Translations under genes and position numbers: made by a program
Notes under the pieces: generated by a model
Seen by the model: only the letters and a program-made list of their open reading frames with translations
The model's database searches: none
Told to the model about the DNA's origin: nothing
In this document: one piece after another, positions 79-16,677 of the stretch
How positions within the stretch are numbered: the first letter of the stretch is position 1
Layout: the number at the start of each line of letters is the position of its first letter
IMG/VR virus record: IMGVR_UViG_3300049893_000311
Location: 1 to 62,278 of that record
DNA length: 62,278 bases
Origin: a virus
Lineage: Duplodnaviria; Caudoviricetes
Reading direction: 5' to 3' (one strand)

Positions 79-152
79 TGGCACACCACCCAGGTACTGC
101 CCCCGGTTTTGCGGGTTTGGAAGCCGCCGTGTCACTTTAACACTTGTGGTGC
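79..152 (-). tRNA. tRNA-Trp(CCA), non-canonical T-loop
   Basis: Acceptor GCACCAC/GTGGTGT-G-CCA; anticodon arm GCGGC-TTCCAAA-CCCGC (one mismatch); T-loop GGCAGTA. Confidence 0.8.
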
Positions 153-564: not shown

Positions 565-635
565 TACCCCCAGATCGTACCGACCGATCTTCTCTCGGGT
601 AAGAGCCGAGTGCATCACCTTAATGCTTTAGGGGC
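565..635 (-). tRNA. tRNA-Lys(CTT), variant T-loop
   Basis: Anticodon arm CTCGG-CTCTTAC-CCGAG; T-arm GATCG-GTCGGTA-CGATC. Confidence 0.85.
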
Positions 636-4710: not shown

Positions 4711-4785
4711 TGGGGTGTCTAGAGGGTACTGCCCCCTCTTCTCTACTGTCACAGAGTAGCACATCACTTTAATGCTTTAGACACC
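4711..4785 (-). tRNA. tRNA-His(GTG), non-canonical T-loop
   Basis: G-1:C73, encoded CCA; CTACT-CTGTGAC-AGTAG; T-loop GGCAGTA. Confidence 0.9.
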
Positions 4786-4946: not shown

Positions 4947-5711
4947 TTAGTAACTCTCGTATGCTACATCATAGCACTTTGAGTCAATCCTGTCAAGTAG
5001 TTCCTGAGCAGGACTTGTTTCTAACCCATCAAGTACCATACTACCATTCCAATCGCGTACTGTCAAGTCGGGTTCATTGAATGGGGTCAGATAGGTGGCA
5101 TCAGTCGGCTCACCGCCCCATTTCTTACGGAAGTAGCCCCTGTGGGCTTCGAACCTCTCAGTAGTCACGTTGGGATTATACTTATCAAACTTTTGGGTCA
5201 TAGATCCCTCATGAATAACATCAATGTCTGTTCTGACGTATCCCTTAACACCGGCAAGGATCATCCTTCGGTGCATATCATTGTCCTCAAAGTAAGCGGG
5301 GTAGAAGTTCTGATCGAACCACCCGGCCTGCTCTGTGACCTGTGGAATATCGATAAAGAAACAGAAAAAGTCTGCACCTTCACGGAGCCCCTCATTCTCA
5401 AACATGTGCTGACGTAGTGGTAGCCTTACCTGATTAGGAGACACGACTCCGGCACCAGTCTCGACAATTGTCTTGTAGAGTTCCTCGATTGCGCCGGGTG
5501 GATACTTAAGATCATCATTAGAAATAAGTGCCCATCTATAACCCAAGTCCCTGGCCCTTCTCATGCCCTCGTTCCAGGCTCCCGACACGCCGCGATTATT
5601 GCGCCATGCATCTATAACGATTGGCCTAATGGCTGTGTCAACAGTTTCAATTGTTTCGGTAAACATATCAAACCGGTTAAGACAGGGGATGATGAATGGA
5701 ATACCGATCAT
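4947..5711 (-). CDS. Glycosyltransferase family 2
   Basis: N.GVSGAWN.G, SNDD (DxD-like), FD.NFYPAYFEDND; ATGA overlap at 5711. Confidence 0.85.
   Translation of the reverse strand: MIGIPFIIPCLNRFDMFTETIETVDTAIRPIVIDAWRNNRGVSGAWNEGMRRARDLGYRWALISNDDLKYPPGAIEELYKTIVETGAGVVSPNQVRLPLRQHMFENEGLREGADFFCFFIDIPQVTEQAGWFDQNFYPAYFEDNDMHRRMILAGVKGYVRTDIDVIHEGSMTQKFDKYNPNVTTERFEAHRGYFRKKWGGEPTDATYLTPFNEPDLTVRDWNGSMVLDGLETSPAQELLDRIDSKCYDVAYESY
4968..5066 (-). promoter_or_regulatory. Tandem promoters (TTGACA-17-TAGTAT 5038-5066; TTGACA-17-TATGAT 4968-4996) for tRNA block
   Basis: Two consensus matches within the 3' end of the glycosyltransferase gene. Confidence 0.7.
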
Positions 5712-6718
5712 ATTGTCAACCACTCCGGGTGGTCTAGTGTCCACTCGACAGTCCTCTGCAGAGATTCCTCTAGGGGCAGTGGGGCTTTCCAGCCTGTTGC
5801 CTCGATGTTATCACAATTAAGTGCATATCTTAGATCGTGTCCTGGCCTAGAACTGTGGAAGTCTACAATCTCATAGTGTAGAGGATTGCCAATGAACTCT
5901 GCAATAAGTGTTGCTAGTTCCAGGTTGTCTACCTCTCGCTCACCGGCGATGTGCAGGCGTAGTGGAGTCTCAGCCTCGCCGTACTTCGGGAATGGCAGGG
6001 AGGCGACGTGCATTAGCCCGTCAGCCTGGTTCCTGGCGTGTAGGTAAAAGCGTGAACCGATACGCCCATCTAGCGAGCCGTGAATCTGTACCAATTCCTC
6101 ATTCAAGATACGCTTAATCACCATAGGAACAAACTTCTCGGGATCCTGCGTCTCACCAATAATGTTCATGGTGTTAGTGATAGCCAGCGGAAGTCCGTAG
6201 GTTCTCCAATAAGAAAACGCAATATCTTCCTGTGCAGCCTTGGAAGCGGAGTACGGATTGCTCGGTAGGTGTTGGTCCTGCCACTCACGGTGGGCGTACC
6301 CATCAGGGGCTGGCCCATAAACCTCATCAGTAGAAATTTGAATGAACTTCTCAATATCAGAGTTACGAGCCCAATCCAAAATGTGTACCATCAAGGATAC
6401 GTTATTGATAATGAACGGTGCCGGTTCCTCGATGCTTCTGTCAACGTGTGACTCACTGGCAACGTTGAACACATAATCGATCTTGCCGAACTCTCTGGCC
6501 GTCAGCGTAGAGATAGGCGAGGTGAAGTCACACCTGATAACCTTGGTGCGGGCATAATCTTCATCAACCTCACGAACGGCGTGACGAATTCTATCCTGCA
6601 GCCCCTTGTGAGTGAAGGTGGTTGGGCATACAATGTCCCAATCAGTATTAACTAGAAAGTGGCGAAGCACATGGCTGCCAACAAAACCGGAAGCACCGGT
6701 CAGCAAAACCCTTTTCAT
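5708..6718 (-). CDS. rmlB: dTDP-glucose 4,6-dehydratase
   Basis: GASGFVG, ASESHVDRSI, STDEVYG, YSASK, RPGHDLRY. Confidence 0.9.
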   Translation of the reverse strand: MKRVLLTGASGFVGSHVLRHFLVNTDWDIVCPTTFTHKGLQDRIRHAVREVDEDYARTKVIRCDFTSPISTLTAREFGKIDYVFNVASESHVDRSIEEPAPFIINNVSLMVHILDWARNSDIEKFIQISTDEVYGPAPDGYAHREWQDQHLPSNPYSASKAAQEDIAFSYWRTYGLPLAITNTMNIIGETQDPEKFVPMVIKRILNEELVQIHGSLDGRIGSRFYLHARNQADGLMHVASLPFPKYGEAETPLRLHIAGEREVDNLELATLIAEFIGNPLHYEIVDFHSSRPGHDLRYALNCDNIEATGWKAPLPLEESLQRTVEWTLDHPEWLTI

Positions 6719-6733: not shown

Positions 6734-7429
6734 CTATCCATTATACCCTATCGGAACAATTGGGGCAACAGCATTTTGCTGACCTAGTTCTATGGTATCC
6801 TGGTGCAGTCCGCTGAATGGGACCGAATATCTATCTGCTATATCACTAATCTTATATCCACTAGCAGTCATATTATCGAGAAAGTGTACCTGATTCCACT
6901 CTACCCCCGAGTAGTTGTGCGCCGGGGCGATAAGCAGTGGAGAACCATGATGCTTAACCATCAACCTTGCTGCCTCGCCACTCAGAAGCCCTACGCTATG
7001 TGCAGCGTGAGGCTGTCCATGAGTATCCAGAATCTTCGGACATACATATGCTACCCCATCAGTCATCCTTTCATAAAATATGTCTATAAAATTATCTACT
7101 GCGGGAACATAATCATCTTCCATCAGAAAATAATCCGTTTCATTACCGGCCCTGACGCTGGCATCTATAGCACTATTCCATCCTCCGTAAGAGAAATCTT
7201 GATTATTTCTTATAATAACAGATAGGTCAGTATAGTATGGTTTATAAGGCTGAACCTCTCTGGCAAAATTTACTATATCATCCTTAGAGTCTGCGTTTAA
7301 GACTAGAACTACCCTGTCTAAGGGAGCGTTTGCGTTACTCAGAAAATCTAGATGATCTCTGACGTGGCACGCAGGTCCAGCGGAGCGTCTCTCCCCCATA
7401 TAGAAAACACTTATATAGGTAACGCTCAA
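6734..7429 (-). CDS. Putative GT-A fold glycosyltransferase
   Basis: R.N...SYGGW and FLMEDDY motifs; context. Confidence 0.5.
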   Translation of the reverse strand: MSVTYISVFYMGERRSAGPACHVRDHLDFLSNANAPLDRVVLVLNADSKDDIVNFAREVQPYKPYYTDLSVIIRNNQDFSYGGWNSAIDASVRAGNETDYFLMEDDYVPAVDNFIDIFYERMTDGVAYVCPKILDTHGQPHAAHSVGLLSGEAARLMVKHHGSPLLIAPAHNYSGVEWNQVHFLDNMTASGYKISDIADRYSVPFSGLHQDTIELGQQNAVAPIVPIGYNG

Positions 7430-12344: not shown

Positions 12345-12626
12345 TTAGAATGTTTCTGTGTTTACTGTTACCGTGTGTCCATCGTCATGATTGATGGTAT
12401 ATGTGTATGGGTCCGCCTTGGTAATGGTGCCGTGGGAGACTATAGGATTCTGCCAGTACGGAGTATAATCACCGGCACCATAAGTCGTCTCAACAACTGT
12501 TTCCTTGACTAAATTACCCTTACCATCATATTCTCTGGTAGTGGTAATTGTCTTAGTAGTACGCGGGTAGTTGTACTGTCCGTAATCGACTACATTCGTT
12601 GGCGGGCCAATCGGATTAATCATCAT
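12345..12626 (-). CDS. Hypothetical protein (start uncertain)
   Basis: ORF directly downstream of tRNA-Ala. Confidence 0.6.
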   Translation of the reverse strand: MMINPIGPPTNVVDYGQYNYPRTTKTITTTREYDGKGNLVKETVVETTYGAGDYTPYWQNPIVSHGTITKADPYTYTINHDDGHTVTVNTETF

Positions 12627-12627
12627 G

Positions 12628-12700
12628 TGGAGCATTAGGGAGTCGAACCCTATCCTATTCCTTGCAAAAGAATCGTGCCATCCCTTAACACCTATGCCCC
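12628..12700 (-). tRNA. tRNA-Ala(TGC)
   Basis: G3:U70 pair; ATTCT-TTTGCAA-GGAAT. Confidence 0.95.
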
Positions 12701-12705
12701 TCTAT

Positions 12706-12776
12706 ACGAGGTGTTCTTTTTTGAACTACCGGAGTCTCGACTTCCAGGCAATGAATTTCACATTGCGTTTCCTCGT
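12706..12776 (-). ncRNA. Circularly permuted tRNA-like module (YrlA-type topology)
   Basis: ACGAGG-AAAC-[GCAATG-TGAAATT-CATTGC]-[CTGGA..TCCGG]-TA-[GTTC-AAAAAA-GAAC]-A-CCTCGT. Confidence 0.65.
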
Positions 12777-12849
12777 GGCTTCGGGTCAGAGGGTCGAACT
12801 CCGATTCGTAGATTCAAAGTCTACTGTCCTGCCATTAGACGAACCCGAA
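12776..12849 (-). tRNA. tRNA-Gln(TTG)
   Basis: TTCGGGT/ACCCGAA-G-CCA; GTAGA-CTTTGAA-TCTAC. Confidence 0.95.
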
Positions 12850-13266
12850 TTAAATTAATTCTTTGCAATTACCCTTCCATGTTCTGATGCGGTGGCAGTT
12901 GCTACACACAACATCACACTTAGAAATTTCCTTTTCGATCTTTTCTACGCTTCCGAGGTTAATCATCTTTGCAATTGTGAACTCTTTATCCGCCGGGTCT
13001 CGGTGATCAAAGTCCATAACATAGAATGGATATTTGACTCCACAATCCATACATGGAACGTCTCTAGCCACTCTAGTAACTTTTCTTAGAGCATCTTGAC
13101 TCGCCTTGTTTCTAGTATACAGTCTTTCTCGCTCCTTGTCAACCGAGTTGTAGTATTCCTTATACCACATCTTTTGACACTCACGACACTTAGACTGATA
13201 CTTGTCCCTTTTCCGATTGAACTGGTCTACCGGCTTTGAAACACCACACGAATTGCAAGTTTTCAT
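12850..13266 (-). CDS. HNH endonuclease with N-terminal Zn finger (leaderless start MKTCNSCG)
   Basis: CxxC pairs, MDFDH...CDVVCSNCHRIR. Confidence 0.85.
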   Translation of the reverse strand: MKTCNSCGVSKPVDQFNRKRDKYQSKCRECQKMWYKEYYNSVDKERERLYTRNKASQDALRKVTRVARDVPCMDCGVKYPFYVMDFDHRDPADKEFTIAKMINLGSVEKIEKEISKCDVVCSNCHRIRTWKGNCKELI

Positions 13267-13272
13267 ACCATG

Positions 13273-13301
13273 ATTATACATGGATTCGAACCCTATGTCA
13301 A
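13273..13301 (-). promoter_or_regulatory. Perfect consensus promoter TTGACA-17-TATAAT, leaderless
   Basis: ATG 6 nt after -10. Confidence 0.85.
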
Positions 13302-13311
13302 GTTCGAGGGG

Positions 13312-13385
13312 CTCGGCGGGGAAGGATCGAACTTCCGACTTCAAGATTCAGAGTCTTGCTGCATATGCCAACAATGCGCCGCCGA
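13312..13385 (-). tRNA. tRNA-Gln(CTG)
   Basis: TCGGCGG/CCGCCGA-G; CAAGA-CTCTGAA-TCTTG. Confidence 0.9.
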
Positions 13386-13397
13386 ATAACTATTATT

Positions 13398-13426
13398 AGT
13401 TTAGCACACTATATAAAGCGTGTCAA
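13398..13426 (-). promoter_or_regulatory. Promoter TTGACA-17-TAAACT
   Basis: Consensus match upstream of tRNA-Gln(CTG). Confidence 0.75.
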
Positions 13427-13429
13427 CTT

Positions 13430-13504
13430 TGGTGCATCCGGACGGTGCTGCCCCGCCGACATTCGCGTTTAGAGTGCGACGTTCTACTGTTGAACTACGG
13501 ATGC
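13430..13504 (-). tRNA. Amber-anticodon tRNA(CTA) #1, full cloverleaf
   Basis: GCATCCG/CGGATGC-A-CCA; TCGCA-CTCTAAA-CGCGA; T-loop GGCAGCA. Confidence 0.85.
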
Positions 13505-13505
13505 T

Positions 13506-13657
13506 TGGTGGGCATATGCGTTACTAGCGCAACCTAGCAGATCAAGGAAACGGACTACCTATAGGATATCCTTCCGCAGCCTGGGCCTTGGATATAGGCG
13601 TTTATCGTGTGCTGTCACTACTAGAGGAAGGCGTTACTAGCAATACCTTCGCTGCCC
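13506..13657 (-). ncRNA. 152-nt ACCA-ended RNA with two CU-AGU-AA loops
   Basis: GGGCA/TGCCC-ACCA; GAAGGT..G-CTAGTAA-C-GCCTTC; CTAGTAG/CTGCTAG; TGCG-CTAGTAA-CGCA; fills the space between two tRNAs. Confidence 0.75.
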
Positions 13658-13658
13658 G

Positions 13659-13725
13659 AGCCCCGGAGGGGAATTGAACCCCAAGTCTGGCTTTTAGAGA
13701 GCCGTCTTGCGCCTGCGTCCGAGGC
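13659..13725 (-). tRNA. Amber-anticodon tRNA(CTA) #2, 67 nt with reduced D-arm
   Basis: GCCTCGG/CCGGGGC-T; GGCT-CTCTAAA-AGCC; GGGG-TTCAATT-CCCC. Confidence 0.7.
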
Positions 13726-13728
13726 AGA

Positions 13729-13756
13729 TGAGCAGTTTTAGTCATGCTCAGGACTA
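13729..13756 (-). other. Compact H-type pseudoknot upstream of tRNA(CTA) #2
   Basis: TAGTC/GACTA stem; loop TGAGCA pairs TGCTCA. Confidence 0.65.
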
Positions 13757-13790
13757 GGGATAAAAGATTTTATCCTCCACCACTTAGTTG

Positions 13791-13820
13791 TTACTAAGTC
13801 TATGTCTAGGTCTATGTCAC
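13791..13820 (-). CDS. Minigene GTG-ACA-TAG-ACC-TAG-ACA-TAG-ACT-TAG-TAA (M-T-X-T-X-T-X-T-X if amber is read)
   Basis: SD AGGGGGTG 7 nt upstream; repeat varies only at the Thr wobble position; ends in TAA. Confidence 0.65.
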
Positions 13821-13861
13821 GACTCACCACCCCCTATAAGAGATTGGCGTTTCGCCTTAAC

Positions 13862-14416
13862 CTATGGGTCTAGAAAATCCCCATCTAGAACAGTTTTCAT
13901 TGCCGCCTCGCGTGGAATCATACCCAAGTAACACATCCAACAGTGCCACGGACCTGAGTGTGGACATTCCTTAGGACGCAACTGGTAGACTGCCGGAGCA
14001 GTTGCAGGCTGCGGTCCAGATCCACAGTCAGGACATTCCTCACCAATAAGCAGGATGCGTCCAGACATACAGGTATCGCAAACATCTAGACGCCCAGCAC
14101 GCTTTTCAGCGCGGCGCTTAAACGTGCTCTGACGGCGCTGTGGAAGCGTGCCGTCCTTGTAAGGAACCATATCACCCTTAAGTTGGTTACACTTGCGATG
14201 CATCAACTTTAGATTATCAAGATCCCACGTTCCGCCATTAGAAAGCGGATTCCAGTGGTCTAGGGTAACGGCCCACCTGTTGTTCTCATCTTCGTAATCG
14301 ATAGAAAAGTCTAGTGGCTCCCCACACTCCGGGTGCATACAAAAATCGCCGTCCCTCTCACGAAGGAATGCGATTCGCTCTTCTCTCGATGGAGCGCGAG
14401 TCTCCACGGTTATCAC
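13862..14416 (-). CDS. HNH endonuclease with C-terminal Cys/His clusters (start 14416 or 14407; in-frame ATG-ACT-TAG at 14440)
   Basis: RDG..C...CG, TLDH..PLS.GG...DNL...H..CN..K. Confidence 0.85.
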   Translation of the reverse strand: MITVETRAPSREERIAFLRERDGDFCMHPECGEPLDFSIDYEDENNRWAVTLDHWNPLSNGGTWDLDNLKLMHRKCNQLKGDMVPYKDGTLPQRRQSTFKRRAEKRAGRLDVCDTCMSGRILLIGEECPDCGSGPQPATAPAVYQLRPKECPHSGPWHCWMCYLGMIPREAAMKTVLDGDFLDP

Positions 14417-14444
14417 CTTTTCGCTAGTGTTCTAAGTCATGGGT

Positions 14445-14651
14445 CTATTGTAGCACATCACCGGTCAGTAGGTCAAGTTGGCCCACAATTGGGGCGTAGG
14501 CACAGTCATCGTCAACGTCTGGACGATTATAGTCACTGACCTCACCACAGTATTTACACGTCAAATAATCTACCTCGTCTGGATCTAAGTTGTCCAGATC
14601 GTCCAGGTCCATGCCTGGAAAGATCGCCCTATCGTGCCATGCGTGCTTCAC
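14445..14651 (-). CDS. Hypothetical acidic protein with CxxC
   Basis: GTGA overlap with upstream stop. Confidence 0.6.
   Translation of the reverse strand: MKHAWHDRAIFPGMDLDDLDNLDPDEVDYLTCKYCGEVSDYNRPDVDDDCAYAPIVGQLDLLTGDVLQ
14447..14476 (-). promoter_or_regulatory. Promoter TTGACC-18-TACAAT; ATG-ACT-TAG at predicted +1
   Basis: TGn extended -10; ATG 6 nt downstream like other leaderless genes here. Confidence 0.7.
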
Positions 14652-14881
14652 CAGAAATCATACCCTTCGAATACTTCCCCCATCGCTGATACGGGGAAAC
14701 CTGATTTTGTGTAGTTGCACCAGCCAGAGTGCTTGCGCTTCTCAAAGCAGTACAGTGTCCTGCCAATCCACTCTATCTTGTCTGCACACCGGCCATGCCA
14801 GTCCTGTAGGTGAGCCATGTACTCCTGCTCTGTGAACCTTTCGTGGTCGATATTGCAGTTCTGATTGAACCGCTCTATCAT
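14648..14881 (-). CDS. Hypothetical protein (Cys/His-rich)
   Basis: AGGAGG SD. Confidence 0.7.
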   Translation of the reverse strand: MIERFNQNCNIDHERFTEQEYMAHLQDWHGRCADKIEWIGRTLYCFEKRKHSGWCNYTKSGFPVSAMGEVFEGYDFW

Positions 14882-14889
14882 CGTACCTC

Positions 14890-16677
14890 CTAGATCAGTC
14901 TCATGCGATCAAGGTAATCCTCGATCTCAGGGGGCATCCTCTTAGGTGCCTGAATCACACCCTCATCATACTCCCTCTTGTCCAAGTTGTCAATAGTAGT
15001 TAGATCACGAGGTTCGTAGATCTCAATGACCGGGTTAAGATCCTTCGGGGTCAAAGAAATTGCATTGAATATAGCACCACAGGTGGCGTCAGCCAAGTCC
15101 TTACTGCCTTGCCTTGGGTGGTCAACCTTGTCCTTATTGATCCTTAGTTTCAGAAGTTCCCTGATGAGGATGGGAAGGTGCGGTCCCTTTACCCTGTCCT
15201 CATAAACGGCCAGTGCCATATCCTCGTAATGCTTTTTAGCAACCGATAGAGTCTCAGACTTCAAACCATATTCACGGAGTTGCTGCATCATATCGTGGCT
15301 GTTCCAGCGGTCGAAGGTGACCATTCGGATATCGAAGCCGAGCCTCTTAAGGTTCAGAATGTAGTCCTTAACCTCTGTGAAATCAACCGATTTGTCTGAC
15401 GAAGGTGTCCAGTAACGTACCGCGTCAACAATAACATACGGAGCAATGATATTTGTCTGCCCCATGATCCTCTGATTCTTCCAGTGGTCAACGTGGGCCA
15501 TAGCAACAGCACAACGGTCATGCTTCTGAGCCAGGTCAACGTGAAGGTAGTAGGCCTTGTCATGCTCCGGCTTAAACCAGTCAGCGAACGATCCATGCTC
15601 TGTAATGGCAATGTTCATTTCTCGGAAAGCCTTCTCTACCTTTTCCTTAGACTTGAAGAATGCGTCGATGGCCTCGGGAGGCATGCACGCAAATCGAGAC
15701 AGAGCATCTACCGAGTCAGTGAGGAATGCGTTTTTCAGGTCGTCCAGGTTGATCAGTGGGTTAACCTCCCACGTTGGGCGCTTCATTGCGAACACCTTTG
15801 GGTACTTGTAGGAGATAATTCTATCCTCTTCCCACTCGATTGTGAACTCGTTATCTGGTAGCCCGCCCGGAAGTGACTCATCAATTTGGAAGGTGTAAGT
15901 TTGGATGACCGTTTCCTTGTCTGCAATAACTTCGTTGTACCTTTGCTGGATGAAGTCCTCTTTATATCGGGGGAAGGATAGCAGCAGAACCTTGCCGAAT
16001 TGCGGGAATCGTGAGTCTACGGAGCCCCTATACATCTTGTAGATGGCGTCAGCGGTCTTAGCGTTCTCGTTTCCAGACATATTCTCGATTGCGAAACCTG
16101 AAATCTCGTCAAGGATGACCAGGATAACGTTGTATCCCTCCCAGGACTCTCGCTCAGAGTGGCCGGAGTGTACGGTCACGTTCTTGATAAATGATACCGC
16201 GTCGGCCTTCTGTGTGTATTTACCTGCGAACCAGGGTGACTTTTCAATCCTGTTCTTGAAGCCCTTGAAGAAAACGTTGCGAGCCTGCTGGCTGTTAATA
16301 GCAATGTTCAGAATGTCAATGGAGTCGCCAGGTGGCTTTCCATAGTACCGCGCCGGGTCTTTTAAGCAGAGCAACAGATAAACGATATAAGCACACGCAA
16401 TTGTCGATGTATAGTCTTTCCCCGAACCCTTCCCCAACTGCATGATGATCTCGGTATATGTCTGCTTCCACCGCCTGTTTCCTTCCTCCGGGCCATAAAG
16501 GTTGATCAGCGTGTCATACTTATAAATCTGTGATGACGCCTCAATGATCTTATACTGATTCTCAGACAGCGGTGGAAGCCCCAAATACTTGTCAGAGGTA
16601 ACGAATTCCTTGACCGGAACCGGCCTTTCATCGAACTCGTCACCACTAAGAATATCTAGAAAGTCAGTCAGACTCAA
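14890..16677 (-). CDS. terL: Terminase large subunit
   Basis: Walker A GKGSGKD, Walker B VILDE, nuclease HVDLA, FDRWNS, KVDHP..GSKDLADA. Confidence 0.9.
   Translation of the reverse strand: MSLTDFLDILSGDEFDERPVPVKEFVTSDKYLGLPPLSENQYKIIEASSQIYKYDTLINLYGPEEGNRRWKQTYTEIIMQLGKGSGKDYTSTIACAYIVYLLLCLKDPARYYGKPPGDSIDILNIAINSQQARNVFFKGFKNRIEKSPWFAGKYTQKADAVSFIKNVTVHSGHSERESWEGYNVILVILDEISGFAIENMSGNENAKTADAIYKMYRGSVDSRFPQFGKVLLLSFPRYKEDFIQQRYNEVIADKETVIQTYTFQIDESLPGGLPDNEFTIEWEEDRIISYKYPKVFAMKRPTWEVNPLINLDDLKNAFLTDSVDALSRFACMPPEAIDAFFKSKEKVEKAFREMNIAITEHGSFADWFKPEHDKAYYLHVDLAQKHDRCAVAMAHVDHWKNQRIMGQTNIIAPYVIVDAVRYWTPSSDKSVDFTEVKDYILNLKRLGFDIRMVTFDRWNSHDMMQQLREYGLKSETLSVAKKHYEDMALAVYEDRVKGPHLPILIRELLKLRINKDKVDHPRQGSKDLADATCGAIFNAISLTPKDLNPVIEIYEPRDLTTIDNLDKREYDEGVIQAPKRMPPEIEDYLDRMRLI

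Follow-up and report, generated by a model that had tools for sequence, protein, structure and literature searches.

We analyzed IMGVR_UViG_3300049893_000311, a DNA record from a freshwater phage with an estimated completeness of about 50%. The window referred to below is the whole of this record (62,278 bases). Our subject is a 152-nt element in a tRNA array, located between two tRNA-like genes that both carry the anticodon CUA. All long open reading frames (ORFs) of the window are on the minus strand, and the element shares this strand with all of the surrounding genes. A preliminary description, made from the sequence alone, had placed the element at 13506 to 13657 with its RNA sense on the minus strand, and its coordinates, length, and orientation all held up. 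Positions within the element (p) are counted in RNA sense, with p corresponding to window coordinate 13658-p. The element occurs as a single copy in its own record. The locus is composed of the following features.

13506-13657, minus strand: the 152-nt element, RNA sense 13657 to 13506 (p1 = 13657, p152 = 13506), reading GGGCAGC...UGCCCACCA, in outline GGGCAGC...UGCCC-ACCA
13653-13657, minus strand: 5' strand of the terminal helix, GGGCA (p1-5), with predicted pair probabilities of 1.0, 1.0, 1.0, 1.0, and 0.85 with p144-148
13506-13514, minus strand: 3' strand of the terminal helix, UGCCC (13514-13510, p144-148), followed by single-stranded ACCA (13509-13506)
13627-13650, minus strand: predicted hairpin 1 (p8-31), with a GAAGGU/GCCUUC lower stem (probability 0.85-0.88) and the first CUAGUAA at 13640-13634
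13618-13624, minus strand: 5' strand of a predicted long-range stem, CUAGUAG (p34-40), pairing with 13540-13534 (probability 0.67-0.94)
13541-13617, minus strand: central domain of 77 nt, in which alternative pairings compete and two 8-nt palindromes lie (GGAUAUCC and CCUAUAGG)
13534-13540, minus strand: 3' strand of the 7-bp long-range stem, CUGCUAG (p118-124)
13517-13531, minus strand: predicted hairpin 3 (p127-141), UGCG-CUAGUAA-CGCA, with a probability of 0.05-0.07 in the form with a 7-nt loop
13631-13648, minus strand: direct repeat copy 1, AGGUAUUGCUAGUAACGC
13518-13535, minus strand: direct repeat copy 2, AGGUUGCGCUAGUAACGC
13659-13726, minus strand: tRNA-like gene 1 (tRNA#1), the upstream neighbor, anticodon loop CUCUAAA (anticodon CUA), with a reduced D arm and no encoded CCA
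13433-13504, minus strand: tRNA#2, the downstream neighbor, anticodon CUA in the loop CUCUAAA, T loop GGCAGCA, encoded ACCA, a full cloverleaf (Rfam tRNA, 47 bits)

Cassette behavior among relatives

The element fits closely between its neighbors. One nucleotide separates it from tRNA#1, and on its other side the ACCA is followed by one A and then by G1 of tRNA#2. We compared this arrangement with 80 terminase-relative loci and 13 metagenome loci, in which relatives are numbered with an L. The ORF behind the first set (14890-16677, upstream of the tRNA array) is taken to be the large terminase; Pfam assigned it no family, and it has hundreds of relatives in IMG/VR. The layout of the tRNA array differed between every relative examined. 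In the closest relative found, L102, the same HNH endonuclease gene, leader, tRNA#1 variant, and tRNA#2 are present, the two tRNAs (732-806 and 655-726) are only 5 nt apart (CGCAA), and the element is absent. An ORF follows tRNA#1 (5638-5705) in L009, again with no element. A further relative, L089, lacks both tRNA#1 and the element but has tRNA#2, with 100% identity over 75 nt. Relatives thus carry one or both of the CUA tRNAs.

We also aligned contigs of four public runs to the region: X3 and X5, which are DNA from two studies, X6, and the metatranscriptome X7. Contigs of X3 and X5 cover 13505-13657 with no listed difference inside the element. Past 13505, both carry one and the same alternative sequence, which starts exactly after ACCA-A and, read in minus-strand sense, looks like the 5' end of a tRNA. 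The tRNA#1 of X5 has a different anticodon stem. In X6, one contig jumps over 13507-13656 and another holds the junction between the element and tRNA#2. The metatranscriptome contributed one contig of 238 nt (13739-13510, 3 differences), which includes tRNA#1 and the element and stops at 13510, where the terminal helix ends; neither 13754-13950 nor the adjacent HNH gene was covered by an X7 contig.

In every context seen, the element sits after tRNA#1, and all copies of it were identical. It is a self-contained and dispensable cassette, the borders of which match both an insertion or deletion and a change of neighbor between relatives. The preliminary description of a discrete, ACCA-terminated unit that is not a tRNA agrees with these borders, and with the one RNA-library contig that covers the element.

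Predicted fold and internal repetition

Three helices form a frame that is strongly supported in folding predictions: the terminal helix, the lower stem of hairpin 1, and the 7-bp long-range stem. The terminal and long-range helices had been recognized in the preliminary description, as had the alternative pairings within the central domain, for which we obtained probabilities of 0.15-0.32 (CCUAUA/UAUAGG) and 0.43-0.44 (CAAGG/CCUUG). Of 400 shuffled elements, 42 formed at least 5 pairs end to end and 3 formed 7. The predicted structure of the element as a whole is only partly supported.

The same description had seen two 7-nt anticodon-like loops with the sequence CUAGUAA. The sequence is indeed present twice (p18-24 and p131-137), but the loops are not favored. 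As a 7-nt loop, hairpin 1 could be closed by just 2 pairs (U-G and G-C) and had a probability of 0.00, against 0.5-0.7 for a form with a CUAG tetraloop. Hairpin 3 as a 7-nt loop was similarly disfavored; its alternative, GUUGC/GUAAC with a GCUA loop, reached 0.78. Both regions are predicted to favor tetraloop alternatives (0.5-0.8), and forcing both 7-nt loops would cost 3.1 kcal/mol (-41.4 versus -44.5).

Both copies of CUAGUAA lie inside an 18-nt direct repeat, AGGUnnnGCUAGUAACGC, which is identical at 15 of 18 positions, 11 of them in an exact run. This exact 11-mer is found nowhere else in the 62-kb window (2 exact copies among 13 matches with at most 2 mismatches). A local alignment of the two halves of the element was equaled by 5 to 10 of 500 shuffles. 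Repetition within the element, unlike its fold energy, does exceed chance. The shorter motif CUAGUA occurs 12 times on the minus strand of the window, with 3 of these occurrences in the element, and five UAG triplets fall within its 152 nt. By sequence inspection, the element contains no small ORF with a plausible start and spacing.

RNA classes and tRNA-type processing

The element had no Rfam match at gathering thresholds, nor at E ≤ 10 in searches of 751 and of 163 bases. As a tRNA or an intron-bearing tRNA, it was not called by ARAGORN in default, intron, relaxed, or mitochondrial settings and had no match to the Rfam tRNA model at E ≤ 10. Because ARAGORN and Rfam miss odd tRNAs of this window, we wrote a cloverleaf search that is blind to loop sequence. 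It recovers tRNA#2 and three tRNAs missed by the programs, and it found nothing within 13506-13657. Two tandem tRNAs of 76 nt (152 = 2 × 76) were rejected as well, since no cloverleaf was found and a global alignment of the halves was unconvincing. For transfer-messenger RNA, ARAGORN made no call in the corresponding mode and Rfam had no match. A G-U at the third acceptor pair is the alanine identity pair; the third terminal pair of the element is G-C. A T-box leader was set aside on three grounds: there was no match to RF00230 at E ≤ 10, the next gene downstream is a tRNA, and no terminator-like site was found within 12500-15000. By position, a mimic of the type found in the thrS operator does not fit either, as tRNAs occupy both flanks and no synthetase domain was found in a Pfam scan that took in 60 of the 63 window ORFs, three giant ORFs being left out. 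A miniature inverted-repeat or other small transposable element was also rejected, with inverted ends of 5 nt where 10 nt or more would be expected, no shared letters at the joint, and one copy in the record.

Two known types of RNA do resemble the element. One is a helix bearing RCCA, as the paired ends GGGCA/UGCCC and the single-stranded ACCA provide (0.85-1.0). The other is that of RNAC and RNAD of phage T4, that is, a unit other than a tRNA within a phage tRNA cluster, on the same strand and abutting tRNAs. The element is a genuine and discrete cassette, an orphan whose end is tRNA-like and which falls outside described RNA families.

The likeness to T4 extends to several details. RNAD (species 2) and RNAC (species 1) are 119- to 139-nt RNAs encoded on the tRNA strand at 1 to 6 nt from their neighbors, and rnaD starts 1 nt after tRNA-Arg, as the element does after tRNA#1. 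The annotated end of rnaD is GCACC followed by A, so that the DNA reads GCACCA, with ACCA encoded as in the element. The fold energy of rnaD is likewise unremarkable (z = -0.83). The T4 cluster holds the homing endonuclease gene segB, and the element is flanked by HNH genes, one of them identified by reading only. In contrast to the element, which has no T-arm-like hairpin, rnaC has a T arm (loop UUCGAAU) together with paired ends. The element also differs from both T4 RNAs in lying between two amber-suppressor tRNAs and in being dispensable among close relatives, and its stable accumulation is only proposed. After 50 years, the function of RNAC and RNAD is described as still unexplained (PMC3014915, PMC9697503).

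Bacterial RNase P is reported to cut at the 5' end of helices bearing RCCA (PMC11143913, PMC12710915, PMC2190699), and to cleave substrates other than tRNAs, phage RNAs included, with a preference for a 3' CCA (PMC11143913, PMC12710915). Its listed substrates include pre-4.5S RNA, the C4 antisense RNA of phages P1 and P7, and the M3 RNA of a phage (PMC11143913). Such substrates have paired 5' and 3' ends followed by ACCA, as the element does, for which cleavage is putative.

We propose that the element is a co-transcribed, CCA-tailed RNA cassette freed by tRNA-processing enzymes in the manner of T4 RNAC and RNAD, and we assign this reading a probability of about 0.5. Transcription would proceed together with both flanking amber-suppressor tRNAs, as suggested by the single contig from an RNA library. 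Since the ends of the element resemble a tRNA acceptor end, with a 5-bp helix, a single-stranded ACCA, and 1-nt spacers all seen in the sequence, tRNA-processing enzymes could excise it. Cleavage by host RNase P at G1 of the element, and again at the 5' end of the next tRNA, would yield a CCA-tailed RNA of about 152 to 153 nt and a tRNA#1 left with a 1-nt trailer. This arrangement would equal that of the small stable RNAs RNAD and RNAC in the T4 tRNA cluster. Our guess is that the released RNA acts as a mimic of a tRNA end, or as a processing or stability module that travels with tRNA#1, rather than as a regulator that binds threonyl-tRNA synthetase (ThrRS) or tRNA. If released, the element would by analogy be a second example, unrelated in sequence, of the T4 kind of object, and it would add to the puzzle of RNAs that are not tRNAs yet are carried in the tRNA clusters of phages and make use of their processing. 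A functional test would be simple, because natural alleles with and without the element exist.

As to origin, duplicated parts of an ACCA-tailed leader specific to this lineage seem to make up the element, which shares a weak similarity with that leader. We refer to this leader as RNA-X and list it here with a second unit of the window.

L089 1506-1617, L091 1928-2041, and L092 495-608: RNA-X, a leader of about 112 nt between a promoter and tRNA-Gln(CUG)
842-929 of the window, minus strand: a second unit that is not a tRNA, with a 7-bp helix (GGGAAGA/UCUUCCC) and ACCA, 1 nt before tRNA-Asn

The promoter of RNA-X is conserved (TTGACA...TAAACT), and in the RNA a 5' hairpin is followed by a long one that ends in ACCA 1 nt before tRNA-Gln. 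Seven of its 34 predicted pairs show compensatory changes among L089, L091, and L092. It had no Rfam match, and an IMG/VR pattern scan for it returned 0 matches. GCG(G)AAGG(A)UAU, the motif with which the terminal hairpin of RNA-X begins, occurs twice in the element (p6 and p81); in the 1.69 Mb of DNA compared there are 6 occurrences, of which 2 are in the element and 2 in RNA-X. In RNA-X, the extended form (G)GGnnGCG(G)AAGG(A)UAU makes up the 5' strand of the terminal helix. The two RNAs share the phage lineage, the tRNA-array context, and an end consisting of a helix and ACCA 1 nt before a tRNA. RNA-X differs in lacking both a four-way junction and CUAGUAA, and its long hairpin carries a CUCA tetraloop. 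When the element was aligned locally with RNA-X of L091 and L092, the score was 32.5 (best at p49-91), a value reached by 0 to 2 of 300 shuffles. We regard shared ancestry as a lead from weak sequence similarity and not as a result. The unit at 842-929 had no homologue in the loci compared, and, as a second such spacer (929-842), it indicates that ACCA-tailed units other than tRNAs recur in this lineage.

Several observations weigh against the proposal of a processed cassette. The minimum free energy (MFE) of the element was ordinary (-44.5 versus -42.8 ± 4.1 for shuffles; z = -0.41), and 61 of 200 shuffles folded as well. Its terminal helix has 5 pairs rather than 7 and no T-arm-like helix stacked on it, so that efficient recognition by RNase P is an assumption. 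The X7 contig takes in 13 nt of the tRNA#1 leader and would therefore represent at best a precursor and not a discrete 152-nt species; because the ends of an RNA are not visible from contigs, and DNA can be present in RNA libraries, it is a hint of transcription only. The contig of X6 that skips the element has just 24 letters on its shorter side, aligned at 80% likeness, and may for that reason stem from a relative like L102 instead of an allele of the same phage. Unrelated coding tiles of the window scored 36.5, 33.5, and 33.0 against the 32.5 of RNA-X, and the alignment of the element to RNA-X of L089 was nothing special. There was no sequence similarity to T4 rnaC or rnaD, with scores of 16.0 and 21.5 that were reached by 269 and 70 of 300 shuffles.

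The element had no homologue in anything searched, in collections from which records very close to the window may be missing, hence no covariation was shown. A distant blastn search against phage GenBank records gave no match, and the 80 terminase-relative loci (blastn and nhmmer) and 13 metagenome loci (blastn) gave chance matches of 14 to 28 nt only. Patterns for the termini and for the middle of the element returned 0 and 0 matches in IMG/VR, and two pattern scans of a genome collection likewise returned 0 and 0. A pattern with both loop repeats hit 7 IMG/VR loci, all of them protein-coding repeats, and one with two CUAGUAA and CCCACCA hit 2, both unrelated repeats. The 290- to 400-nt gap that follows tRNA-Met in terminase relatives is a small ORF and not an RNA.

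Suppressor tRNAs, minigene, and competing explanations

The setting of the element matters more than the element itself: a phage with the standard code in its visible half carries two structurally odd tRNAs, predicted from their anticodons to be amber suppressors, behind a minigene of alternating threonine and UAG codons, (Thr-UAG)n. Recoding of TAG is not visible in the window, because ORFs of at least 100 amino acids under translation table 11 span 93% of it; TAG is the stop of 8 of the 63 ORFs.

13791-13820, minus strand: the minigene GUG ACA UAG ACC UAG ACA UAG ACU UAG UAA, directly after the HNH stop, with a Shine-Dalgarno-like GGGGGUGGUGAG at about 13823-13834

The minigene is kept in L089, L090, L102, and L009 with 3 rather than 4 Thr-UAG units. 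Its third Thr codon varies synonymously among relatives (ACA, ACU, or ACC), and a CUA tRNA follows the minigene in every case. It resembles the coding sequence of a leader peptide, translation of which would depend on, and so read out, amber suppression. No similar minigene was among the matches listed in the literature on phage suppressor tRNAs, amber, and leader peptides. The heptamer UAGUAAC occurs 5 times on the minus strand of the window, and 3 of these are the end of the minigene and the cores of the two repeats in the element.

Among the alternatives to a processed cassette, the one that we take most seriously, while considering it unlikely, is that the element is nonfunctional filler, the debris of duplication or rearrangement of leader or tRNA-array sequences that does no harm to the processing of neighboring tRNAs. 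Its absence from L102, L009, and L089 shows that it is dispensable, the sequence is an orphan of ordinary fold energy, its internal repeat and RNA-X-like motifs have a patchwork look, and the array is reshuffled between all relatives examined. However, random debris would hardly have a terminal helix and ACCA exactly at the borders of the cassette, the same cassette is intact beside two different downstream neighbors, and ACCA-tailed units recur in the lineage, RNA-X among them with compensatory changes. It is improbable, in turn, that the DNA and its palindromes matter instead of an RNA, as they would in a small mobile or homing-associated insert or a site of protein binding. About 150 bp are precisely present or absent, and HNH genes lie on both sides, one by Pfam (13862-14416) and the other by reading, with no Pfam match (12850-13344). 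There are also three 8-nt palindromes (GGATATCC, CCTATAGG, and GCATATGC) and 4 CTAG in 152 nt, a density for which the element ranks within the highest 148 of some 62,100 sliding windows. Yet the terminal inverted repeat is only 5 nt long with no target duplication at the joint, one copy exists in the record with none elsewhere in the IMG/VR and genome pattern scans, and the borders coincide with those of tRNA genes, as expected if cassettes are exchanged by recombination in the flanking tRNAs.

The remaining alternatives assign a role to the CUAGUA motifs, and we give each of them little credence. The element could be a regulatory RNA of an amber-suppression module comprising the minigene, tRNA#1, and the element itself, its CUAGUA motifs acting in trans, which we regard as a long shot. 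Released by RNase P as a CCA-tailed four-way junction with three CUAGUA motifs, it might imitate an anticodon arm and so act as a decoy for ThrRS or for a nuclease of the host that is directed at tRNA. Alternatively, it might be a C4-like antisense RNA to a single GUUACUAGAG site in the mRNA of the adjacent homing endonuclease (13080-13071); either way, the timing of suppression or the expression of the endonuclease would be tuned. In C4 antisense RNA, the loops base-pair with targets farther downstream in its own operon. For the element motifs CUAGUAAC and CUCUAGUA, the sole exact 8-nt complements on the minus strand are GUUACUAG and UACUAGAG, one each, which overlap at 13080-13071 inside ORF 12850-13344; about 0.95 of each would be expected by chance. 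A scan for antisense targets found many duplexes elsewhere that are better than the one at this HNH-like site.

That the element is a ThrRS mimic, displaying two loops like that of tRNA-Thr(AGU) on a CCA-tailed scaffold, or, in a variant, is a decoy for an anticodon-directed host nuclease, appears very unlikely. CUAGUAA does fit U33-NGU-A37-A38, its two identical copies exceed chance, the minigene has only Thr codons between its UAGs, and the 18 tRNA-like genes seen there include no tRNA-Thr. Against this stand the near absence of the 7-nt loops from the predicted ensemble and the position of the element, which precedes a tRNA and not a thrS-like mRNA, with no adjacent synthetase gene or regulated mRNA among the 60 of 63 ORFs scanned. 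The C2-G71 pair is an identity element for ThrRS of Escherichia coli, and the acceptor end of the element, with G1-C and G2-C, lacks it. Nor is the loop conserved in the sole weak relative, since RNA-X has its CUCA tetraloop at the place of the first CUAGUAA, although homology there is weak. The resemblance to the E. coli thrS operator or to a T box lies only in the idea of hairpins like anticodon arms or of a displayed triplet; the element is not in the 5' untranslated region of a synthetase or amino-acid gene, and its loops are not predicted to be open. The mimicry of tRNA-Thr favored in the preliminary description is thus not supported.

Its other suggestion, that the loops expose UAG to the suppressor tRNAs on either side and pair with their CUA anticodons, as a sponge or as a sensor in the manner of a T-box specifier, fares no better, and we hold it to be just as remote. 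The five UAG triplets, the sharing of UAGUAAC with the end of the minigene, and the constant position after tRNA#1 speak for it. Duplex energies, on the other hand, were no better than those of shuffled elements: of 300 shuffles, 300 equaled the element with the CUA loop, 246 and 275 with the two anticodon arms, 218 and 247 with the two whole tRNAs, and 65 with the leader. Because C precedes and U follows UAG, pairing between UAG and CUA is limited to 3 bp, and in the CUAGUAA loops the UAG is one position out of anticodon register. There is also no T-box match in Rfam, no UGGN bulge, and no terminator context, and tRNA#1 or tRNA#2 exists without the element in L009, L089, and L102.

The flanking genes have features of their own. 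The match of tRNA#1 to Rfam is a weak one to tRNA-Sec (16.5 bits), and ARAGORN finds the gene in mitochondrial mode; the Rfam tRNA model misses it, as does ARAGORN in other modes. The predicted helices persist in its variants from the window, L009, and L102, and 8 of the 17 predicted pairs show compensatory changes. A hairpin with a loop containing UAAAA lies 3 to 4 nt upstream of tRNA#1 (13727-13751, minus strand) and has equivalents in L009 and L102; by eye, the stems differ yet stay complementary (GAGCA/UGCUC, GGUC/GACC, and GAUCC/GGAUC). Upstream of tRNA#2 in L089 (about 870-908) and L090 (about 2240-2283), a helix of GCCA/UGGC (GCCC/GGGC in L090) surrounds the T-arm-like CGG-UUUGAAU-CCG, and it looks like the remnant of a tRNA minihelix without CCA. 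The ORF at 12850-13344, read as HNH from its sequence, is absent from L102, L089, and L091. A UACUAG at 13112-13117 lies 39 nt from the complement site at 13071-13080.

Standard tRNA finders also overlook a set of tRNAs of this phage in which the T loop reads GGCAGYA. Three perfect cloverleafs were missed by both ARAGORN and Rfam.

4715-4784, minus strand: tRNA-His(GUG), with G-1 and an encoded CCCA
83-152, minus strand: tRNA-Trp(CCA), with GCCA
566-635, minus strand: tRNA-Lys(CUU)

The T loop of these genes is either GGCAGUA or GUCGGUA, where tRNA#2 has GGCAGCA, and the consecutive GG pair is missing from the D loops (UUAAAGUGA/UUAAGGUGA). The counterpart of the missed His gene in L091 scores 46 bits as a tRNA. 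CCA is encoded in just 3 of the 15 listed tRNA genes of the window.

Elsewhere in the window, Pfam matches include the DNA polymerase III alpha subunit, RecA, DnaB, a primase, sugar-modifying enzymes, and HNH endonucleases. A 231-amino-acid ORF (6734-7429, minus strand) has TAG as its stop and shares its frame with the ORF at 5708-6718, which starts 5 codons on and belongs to the NAD-dependent epimerase/dehydratase family (PF01370). Amber suppression would fuse the two, an arrangement that may be due to chance, given frame odds of about 1 in 3.

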